64,000 nucleotides of DNA from Escherichia coli (GTDB lineage Bacteria; Pseudomonadota; Gammaproteobacteria; Enterobacterales; Enterobacteriaceae), in NCBI RefSeq assembly GCF_003334255.1, contig NZ_QOWU01000007.1; one strand, 5' to 3'. Below are positions 60,809 through 61,049 of this stretch, piece by piece. The position numbers were made by a program, and so were the translations under genes. Within the stretch, counting starts at the first letter, position 1. Every line of letters begins with the position of its first letter. The notes beneath the pieces were generated by a model, which searched no databases, was not told where the DNA came from, and saw only the letters and a program-made list of their open reading frames with translations.

Positions 60809-61049
60809 TGCCGGTCCTGTGAGTTAATAGGGAATCCAGTGCGAATCTGGAGCTGACGCGCAGCGGTAAGGAAAGGTGCGATGATTGCGTTATGCGGACA
60901 CTGCCATTCGGTGGGAAGTCATCATCTCTTAGTATCTTAGATACCCCTCCAAGCCCGAAGACCTGCCGGCCAACGTCGCATCTGGTTCTCATCATCGCGT
61001 AATATTGATGAAACCTGCGGCATCCTTCTTCTATTGTGGATGCTTTACA
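60809..61049 (+). promoter_or_regulatory. btuB 5' leader with adenosylcobalamin riboswitch
   Basis: About 240-nt leader before btuB containing a B12-box-like aagcccgaagacctgccggcc at 60949..60971; the btuB leader is the prototype AdoCbl riboswitch. Confidence 0.75.

Follow-up and report, generated by a model that had tools for sequence, protein, structure and literature searches.

The window, by which we mean the whole 64,000-nucleotide stretch of Escherichia coli DNA that was analysed, carries between 59.2 and 64.0 kb the genes yijD, trmA (minus strand, 59581-60681), btuB (61050-62894) and murI (62839-63696), with rrnB-type promoters next. This 3' end is the trmA-btuB-murI-rrnB region of E. 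coli K-12 type. It differs from MG1655 (NC_000913.3) at four of 4,790 aligned bases, all of them substitutions outside the btuB leader, btuB and murI. Because the leader is identical to that of MG1655, the K-12 literature on it applies base for base to the window. The gene coordinates are equivalent as well, RefSeq placing K-12 btuB (b3966) at 4163639..4165483 and murI (b3967) at 4165428..4166285. Moreover, a 3-kb query of the region found a match in 5,426 of 5,426 complete E. coli genomes, in which the riboswitch, btuB and murI are annotated, and PGAP gives a 'cobalamin riboswitch' at the equivalent site of other E. coli genomes.

Two features of this region are treated here, the riboswitch in the btuB leader and the overlap of btuB with murI. 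Both are real, both are already known, and both are ordinary. Among riboswitches the btuB leader is the founding example, and every E. coli annotation shows the btuB/murI overlap. When the window is set beside the K-12 btuB AdoCbl riboswitch (RF00174), no difference appears in the aptamer, the B12 box, the P13/L13 pseudoknot partner, P14 or the position relative to btuB. Nor does its gene pair differ from b3966/b3967 in E. coli: the relative coordinates, the 56-nt overlap and the 285-aa MurI are those of RefSeq and PDB 2jfn.

Upstream of and within the first codons of btuB, the following features can be placed.

60774..60803, plus strand: btuB promoter-like site, with -35 TGGACA at 60774-60779, an 18-nt spacer and -10 TAGCAT at 60798-60803 (consensus scan, 9/12)
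60810..61049, plus strand: btuB 5' leader, 240 nt from the +1 at G60810 to the base before the AUG, beginning GCCGGUCC...
60795..60984, plus strand: cobalamin (AdoCbl) riboswitch aptamer, RF00174 match over the full model
60810-60815 with 60965-60970, plus strand: aptamer helix P1, from the RF00174 alignment
60829-60831 with 60962-60964, plus strand: aptamer helix P3, from the RF00174 alignment
60835-60839 with 60847-60851, plus strand: aptamer helix P4, from the RF00174 alignment
60853-60855 with 60861-60863, plus strand: aptamer helix P5, from the RF00174 alignment
60856..60860, plus strand: L5 loop ACGCG, complementary to 60996-61000 (CGCGU) of the P13 loop
60951..60971, plus strand: B12 box aagcccgaagacctgccggcc (AAGCCCGAAGACCUGCCGGCC), exact string, supplying the 3' strands of P3 and P1
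60984..61015, plus strand: helix P13, in which 60984-60987 and 60989-60994 pair with 61006-61015 and L13 carries CGCG at 60996-60999 (MFE fold)
61019..61044, plus strand: helix P14, the Shine-Dalgarno (SD)-sequestering hairpin of 7 bp, with the anti-SD at 61019-61025, the loop at 61026-61037 and the SD arm at 61038-61044 (MFE fold)
61130..61259, plus strand: C-rich, G-poor Rho-termination region in btuB codons +81 to +210, from the literature only (PMC11162775), with coordinates converted from the AUG

The +1 of btuB is set at G60810 because published constructs start at -240 from the AUG (PMC11162775); the published fusions run from -240 to +99 (PMC11162775). This published +1 lies 7 nt downstream of the promoter-like site at 60774-60803, and a G-to-T change in the btuB -35 element, combined with a change in the ribosome-binding site, raised btuB-murI mRNA about 300-fold (PMC10802341). 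RF00174 (Cobalamin) matches 60795-60984 on the plus strand over model positions 1-189 of 189, scoring 87.0 bits where the gathering threshold is 31.5, with an E-value of 4e-21, well outside what chance would give. The sequence-only reading had taken this leader, with its B12-box-like element, to be consistent with the classic AdoCbl riboswitch, and had named the Rfam cobalamin covariance model as a check. The strong full-length match and the presence of the quoted string at 60951-60971 bear this out. It had also drawn the leader at 60809-61049; the end and the length of roughly 240 nt were right, while the start was one base early, the true leader being 60810-61049.

The comparative support came from 80 loci, one per Enterobacteriaceae species, collected with MurI as the query (the best 80 of 329 matches), which together with the window give 81 sequences. 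This sample is biased towards a kept MurI N-terminus, as it consists of the closest matches and MATKLQDG itself was one search seed. The leader is present in 80 of 80 species loci (best 80 of 329 matches), being 70-98% identical to that of the window, and in the same 80 loci the riboswitch lies, as here, directly upstream of btuB, a cobalamin transport gene. RF00174 matched in full length in 10 of the 10 relatives scanned, with 76-96 bits, and the B12-box core CCGAAGACCTGCCGG is unchanged in 81/81 leaders. In two loci, L074 and L021, the aptamer carries an ERIC insertion.

The E. coli structure was then overlaid on the alignment of the 81 leaders, with 3' partners slid by 1-3 columns and 500 shuffles serving as controls. 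Standard pairs occupy 93.7% of cells, compared with 34-45% when the partners are slid. Changes on both sides of a pair (compensatory changes) occur at 17 pairs, a number reached in 0 of 500 shuffles, this being a lenient test among close relatives. Most pairs of the aptamer core are invariant across the 81 leaders and hence uninformative for covariation. In helix P13, 9 of 10 pairs have changes on both sides across the 81 species. The seven pairs of P14 are all invariant in 81/81 around a variable loop, which is conservation without covariation. Similarly, the CGCG/CGCG pairs between L5 and L13 are kept in 79-80 of 81, and both sides are near-invariant, so no covariation can be counted there. 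As for the single-sequence MFE fold of the leader, it was set aside as evidence (z = -0.25), being uninformative for an aptamer that depends on ligand and pseudoknot; the Rfam alignment and the cross-species pair counts were used instead. Nothing in these data contradicts the riboswitch assignment.

The expression platform follows the published scheme, in which P13 forms a pseudoknot with the aptamer and P14 governs ribosome access to the SD (PMC11162775). In the window the btuB SD, GGA at 61038-61040, sits inside the 3' arm of P14, 9 nt before the AUG at 61050. AdoCbl binding and ligand-dependent repression have been published for the identical K-12 sequence (PMC11162775, PMC3866643, PMC5359240). 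In the OFF state the SD is sequestered, and AdoCbl represses a translational fusion by 97%; AdoCbl regulation is lost in the P13 mutant EP1 and in the P14 mutants EP2 and EP3, EP1 also being the evidence for pseudoknot function (all PMC11162775). The function of the kissing loop is credited to Lussier 2015, as cited in PMC11162775. The drop in btuB mRNA is a consequence of the translational repression and needs Rho at coding positions +81 to +210 (PMC11162775), and the small RNAs OmrA and OmrB add a separate layer of control on btuB (PMC11162775). Ligand binding, SD sequestration and Rho termination, like the essentiality of murI, are literature-based. Placed on the window, the order of events would be that AdoCbl bound by the aptamer stabilises the kissing pseudoknot between L5 (60856-60860) and the P13 loop (60996-61000). 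This pseudoknot would favour P14 (61019-61044), so that the SD would be buried and no initiation would take place at the AUG at 61050. The untranslated btuB mRNA would finally be subject to early Rho termination in the coding region.

At the other end of btuB, the coding features are arranged as follows.

61050..62894, plus strand: btuB coding sequence, ATG at 61050, TGA at 62892-62894, 614 aa; TonB-dependent cobalamin outer-membrane receptor; RefSeq b3966
62839..63696, plus strand: murI coding sequence, ATG at 62839, TGA at 63694-63696, 285 aa; glutamate racemase, an essential cell-wall gene; RefSeq b3967; PF01177
62839..62894, plus strand: btuB/murI overlap of 56 nt with murI in frame +1, covering the last 18 residues and the stop of BtuB, and residues 1-18 plus two bases of codon 19 of MurI
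62829..62832, plus strand: weak SD-like GAGA of murI, 7 nt before the ATG, made of a btuB Glu codon and the first base of a Thr codon

The Pfam families Plug and TonB_dep_Rec_b-barrel are found on the BtuB orthologue, and MurI is identical to the PDB 2jfn chain over 285 aa. Intact open reading frames give an overlap of exactly 56 nt in 78/80 species loci, and local examination gives it in 80/80 (best 80 of 329 matches). Two apparent exceptions were rejected. L063 is frameshifted within a G7 run, and L042, which is closely related to it, is intact and collinear; in L039, codon 392 of btuB is an in-frame stop. The btuB tail ending in SGSYTF before the stop is retained in both, together with the overlap.

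To judge how far this layout reaches, we combined a 50%-cluster search with contig look-ups, a plain search for MurI homologues having given close relatives only (85% or more). L083 and L084, whose MurI shows only 67% identity, retain the order trmA-btuB-murI and the 56-nt overlap. MurI proteins of 45-53% identity have other upstream neighbours, for example argH or metF, and no btuB. What the comparison adds, then, is that neither the murI ATG nor the length of the overlap changes among 80 Enterobacteriaceae species or at 67% MurI identity, and that the layout is missing at 45-53%. The layout looks confined to the Enterobacteriaceae and near relatives, as judged from the few distant loci sampled.

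An overlap of this kind shares with typical operon overlaps (ATGA or TAATG, 1-4 nt, associated with termination-reinitiation) that both genes lie on the same strand and that the downstream start is inside the upstream gene. It differs from those 1-4-nt overlaps in that the murI start is 53 nt upstream of the btuB stop and in that both frames encode a conserved peptide over 56 nt. At a distance of 53 nt from the stop codon, reinitiation at murI by ribosomes terminating on btuB seems unlikely.

Across the 81 sequences, btuB codon positions 1, 2 and 3 are conserved at 0.98, 0.98 and 0.97 inside the overlap. Third positions of murI downstream of it are conserved at 0.74, and in btuB, for the greater part of its last 650 nt, only ~30-60% of species share the E. 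coli base at third positions. A second count took in only those codons at which 95% or more of 79 species have the same BtuB residue. Here the major-codon frequency reaches 0.974 within the overlap, with 12 of 15 codons at 0.97 or above, versus 0.60 over the first 1,650 nt of btuB, where 6 of 171 codons reach that level. The nearly frozen synonymous sites of btuB in the overlap are as would be expected under a second translated frame, and the MurI N-terminal peptide of 18 residues is conserved across genera. In L083, 13 of 18 residues of the BtuB tail are similar, versus 8 of 19 in the MurI extension. From these alignments BtuB seems to be the dominant constraint in the overlap and the MurI extension an overprinted frame.

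In alignments with E. coli MurI, PDB racemases of other bacteria begin to match only at about residue 20-26, and the overlap thus encodes an N-terminal extension ahead of the racemase core. In protein terms, one of its frames encodes a conserved part of BtuB, the C-terminal strand of the barrel, and the other a short MurI extension preceding that core. A review that we consulted makes no mention of a role for the MurI N-terminus.

Where murI begins can be asked of three places. Its frame is open from 62806 and contains ATGs at 62827 and 62839, while GTGs follow at +69 (62908) and +75 (62914) relative to 62839. Without exception, the 80 species loci (best 80 of 329 matches) have the ATG at 62839, and so does L083 at 67% MurI identity. 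The GAGAC at the murI SD is invariant in 81/81. Predicted duplexes with the 16S 3' end give -2.7 kcal/mol for the murI GAGA and -3.1 for the btuB SD, compared with -0.9 for the ATG at 62827 and +0.4 and +0.6 for the downstream GTGs. Initiation at 62839 would accordingly make use of a weak SD-like GAGA composed of btuB codons.

If translation began instead at the upstream ATG, MurI would have 289 aa (MRQSMATKL...) and the overlap would measure 68 nt. The ATG at 62827 was reportedly the original 1992 prediction of the murI start. The program-made list of open reading frames begins the murI frame there, at 289 aa, and the RefSeq MurI protein stands at version.2, which is compatible with a revision of the start. 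Among the 81 sequences this ATG occurs only in the window and L005, and beyond them in the distant L083; it is missing in most species because the btuB Tyr codon at this place is TAC. Its SD pairing is the weaker one (-0.9 vs -2.7 kcal/mol), and both RefSeq and PDB 2jfn use the 285-aa form. The 2jfn structure of E. coli MurI was deposited as a 285-aa protein beginning MATKLQ, although the deposit follows the annotation and is no proof of the start. We consider initiation at 62827 extremely improbable.

A start downstream of the btuB stop, at GTG 62908 or 62914 (Val24 or Val26), would turn the overlap into an annotation artefact. It has in its favour that the racemase core begins at about residue 20-26 by alignment with other bacteria, and that MurI proteins of 45-53% identity exist with no btuB upstream. 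It also draws on a recent transposon study. [quoted passage not shown] TraDIS insertions inside the overlap were tolerated with an about 10-fold orientation bias, and the authors suggest that a truncated MurI N-terminus or an alternative start can suffice (bioRxiv 10.1101/2025.12.01.691526). The orientation bias, however, fits expression driven from the transposon rather than a natural start. Neither GTG is universally conserved or has SD pairing, and the MurI N-terminal peptide is kept across genera. Furthermore, btuB third positions are 97% conserved in the overlap versus 30-60% in most of btuB, which would be unexpected without a second constraint such as the murI frame and so argues against a downstream start. 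This possibility is, in our view, very unlikely.

The start at 62839 is therefore the one that we retain. The sequence-only reading had placed the murI start there, inside btuB, with an overlap of 56 nt up to the btuB stop at 62894, and both statements stand. The open reading frames and the RefSeq K-12 coordinates agree on the overlap, and the invariant ATG, the rarity of 62827, the invariant GAGA, the SD-less GTGs and the constraint on both frames point to initiation at 62839. Its description of the same-strand overlap as unusually long was fair, though the overlap was already documented, and its suggestion to inspect the murI SD within btuB led to the weak but invariant GAGA 7 nt upstream.

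Codon constraint in btuB is not limited to the overlap. Its onset is some 50 nt before the murI ATG. Over 62780-62838 the major-codon frequency is 0.925, with 10 of 17 codons at 0.97 or above, compared with 0.60 and 6 of 171 for the remainder of btuB. Constraint is tightest in GTTCGTGGTAAAAT (62790-62803), in which GTT, CGT, GGT and AAA are each the single codon used in 79/79 species. Within it lies one more feature.

62795..62803, plus strand: candidate extended -10 element of murI, TGgTAAAAT (TGGTAAAAT), proposed from conservation; expected start ~62810 (K-12 about 4165399)

In TGgTAAAAT, a TGn lies directly upstream of a -10 hexamer with A2 and T6, which fits the extended -10 pattern of sigma-70. 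A start about 7 nt past this element gives, by computation, a murI 5' leader of ~28 nt. TGGTAAAAT is present in 80/81 species, and TGGTAGAAT is found in one of them and in L083. The pattern TGNTANAAT has 2 matches in the 64-kb window versus 6.6 expected by chance, so its occurrence alone is not significant. We note that a form of TGGTAAAAT synonymous for btuB exists, TGGCAAGAT (GGT to GGC, AAA to AAG).

Two other candidates at this end of btuB were tried and rejected. A promoter-like match at 62666-62693 was dropped as a murI promoter, since no more than 36-40% of species share the E. coli base at the btuB third positions there. So was translational coupling by way of structure at the murI start, where the local fold is unremarkable (z = -1.0).

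A separate promoter for murI is plausible because AdoCbl shuts btuB off with early Rho termination, yet murI is essential. An own promoter would keep the B12 repression of btuB from starving the cell of glutamate racemase. On the pattern of conservation, we give close to an even chance that TGGTAAAAT at 62795-62803 is a murI promoter independent of the riboswitch. It is also tempting to speculate that the last ~110 nt of btuB (about 62787-62894) form a self-contained murI module, consisting of promoter, ~28-nt 5' UTR, weak SD and 18 codons; reading the frozen codons in this way has, we would say, a little less than an even chance of being right. We did not trace the TGGTAAAAT promoter in the literature, and it may already be in EcoCyc, RegulonDB or atlases of transcription start sites. 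A text search returned no paper combining murI, btuB and 'transcription start', and the Kim 2012 supplements held no match for a mapped start site near 62810.

Two observations on disrupted btuB genes belong here. In a clinical isolate, IS421 lies inside btuB with murI intact, and the viable strain mentioned above lacks ~1000 bp at the 5' end of btuB. Each is compatible with independent expression of murI, and each comes with an element, the IS or the cassette, that may read outwards.

The same frozen sites can be explained on a shared transcript. The positions 62787-62838 would then be the translation-initiation region of murI (an unstructured standby site or enhancer), and murI would be expressed only from the btuB promoter. 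This explanation agrees with the treatment of btuB-murI as one operon, whose joint transcript is raised by promoter mutations (PMC10802341), and with the conserved stretch reaching right to the murI SD and ATG. The text search and the Kim 2012 supplements, in which evidence of a start site for an own promoter was not found, also speak for it. It has to accommodate the 97% repression by AdoCbl with early Rho termination, while murI is essential and cells grow with B12. The most invariant block, moreover, is exactly TGnTAAAAT, about 36-44 nt upstream of the ATG, and the local RNA fold (z = -1.0) is not unusual. The viable deletion and the IS421 insertion weigh against it too, with the reservation that both may supply outward transcription. 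We regard expression from the btuB promoter alone as a serious possibility, with rather less than an even chance of being correct.

Returning to the region as a whole, we consider it very probable that its joint explanation comprises a riboswitch with burial of the SD by P14, Rho-dependent shut-off of btuB, a murI start at 62839 within the overlap and an inferred promoter of murI's own, the last of these keeping the separate weight given to it above.

As a discovery, all this carries little weight, both features being already known. Its practical meaning is that the 3' ~110 nt of btuB are not freely alterable, as the start of murI, the codons for the MurI N-terminus and probably a murI promoter lie within them. 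This constraint on the btuB tail is relevant wherever btuB is deleted or engineered, as in work on phage or colicin receptors and on B12 biosensors. Finally, if the module proposed here is true, it would insulate the essential murI from the shut-off of btuB by the B12 riboswitch and Rho, and it would explain why the btuB tail is frozen across the Enterobacteriaceae even in places where the remainder of BtuB has dropped to ~52% identity.

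Within btuB, synonymous sites are strongly constrained at 62787-62838, directly 5' of the murI ATG. At the centre of this stretch stands TGGTAAAAT (core 62795-62803), an extended -10-like element that does not vary. Judged from the sequence, TGGTAAAAT is a candidate murI promoter that would act independently of the riboswitch. At 62827-62829, 12 nt 5' of the murI start, the murI frame contains another ATG. It is present only because the btuB tyrosine codon of E. coli is TAT and not TAC, and it accounts for the 289-aa open reading frame that appears in mechanical ORF lists. Other promoter-like sites flank the region:

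60740-60713, minus strand: divergent promoter-like site upstream of trmA
63742-63769, plus strand: strong promoter-like site downstream of murI, TTGTCA-16-TATAAT, 11/12
63861-63888, plus strand: strong promoter-like site downstream of murI, TTGACT-16-TATTAT, 10/12

Because they precede the 16S gene, the two sites downstream of murI are presumably rrnB P1 and P2.

In a few Enterobacteriaceae, the btuB aptamer contains a palindromic repeat, inserted where the GACACUGC...GGGAAGUC hairpin has its terminal loop. Long and short forms of this insert occur, listed here with the coordinates of each locus and with the corresponding loop of the window:

60905-60910, window: loop that is the counterpart of the insert site
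L074:943-1078 and L021 (aptamer match 837-1136), Enterobacteriaceae MAG and Silvania hatchlandensis: long insert, about 135 nt
L033, L035 and L077, Lelliottia, Leclercia and Huaxiibacter (aptamer matches at about 921-1154): short insert, about 45 nt

The aptamers carrying inserts reach up to about 300 nt and are still matched over their full length by the Rfam Cobalamin model RF00174, with scores of 76-88 bits. RNA folding predicts that the long insert forms a hairpin. The same long insert belongs to a repeat scattered through intergenic regions: E. coli genomes carry a median of 9 copies each, with about 84% identity. Judging by the consensus, it looks like ERIC/IRU.

When a 3-kb piece of the btuB region was compared with 5,426 complete E. 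coli genomes, about 375 of them had no single match spanning at least 80% of the query. In the sputum isolate E. coli ECO-104 (NZ_CP141581.1; L090:1203-2539), the IS4-like element IS421 splits btuB after approximately codon 184, making this strain a natural btuB knockout in which the riboswitch and murI are both intact. In Intestinirhabdus alba (L039:1212-3056), codon 392 of btuB is an in-frame stop, although the locus has kept an intact leader, btuB tail and murI overlap; the stop may mark a pseudogene or stem from a sequencing error.

Two loci, L063 and L042 (Citrobacter amalonaticus), are collinear with 91% nucleotide identity, with btuB at the following position:

about 1113-3056, L063 and L042: btuB

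The btuB of L063 is frameshifted within a G7 run, which is probably an assembly error. Its product shares about 52% identity with E. coli BtuB at residues 1-580 and 85% across the last 55 residues. These alignments suggest that the body of the receptor has either diverged or been swapped, with retention of the btuB tail, which lies 5' of murI and runs into it.
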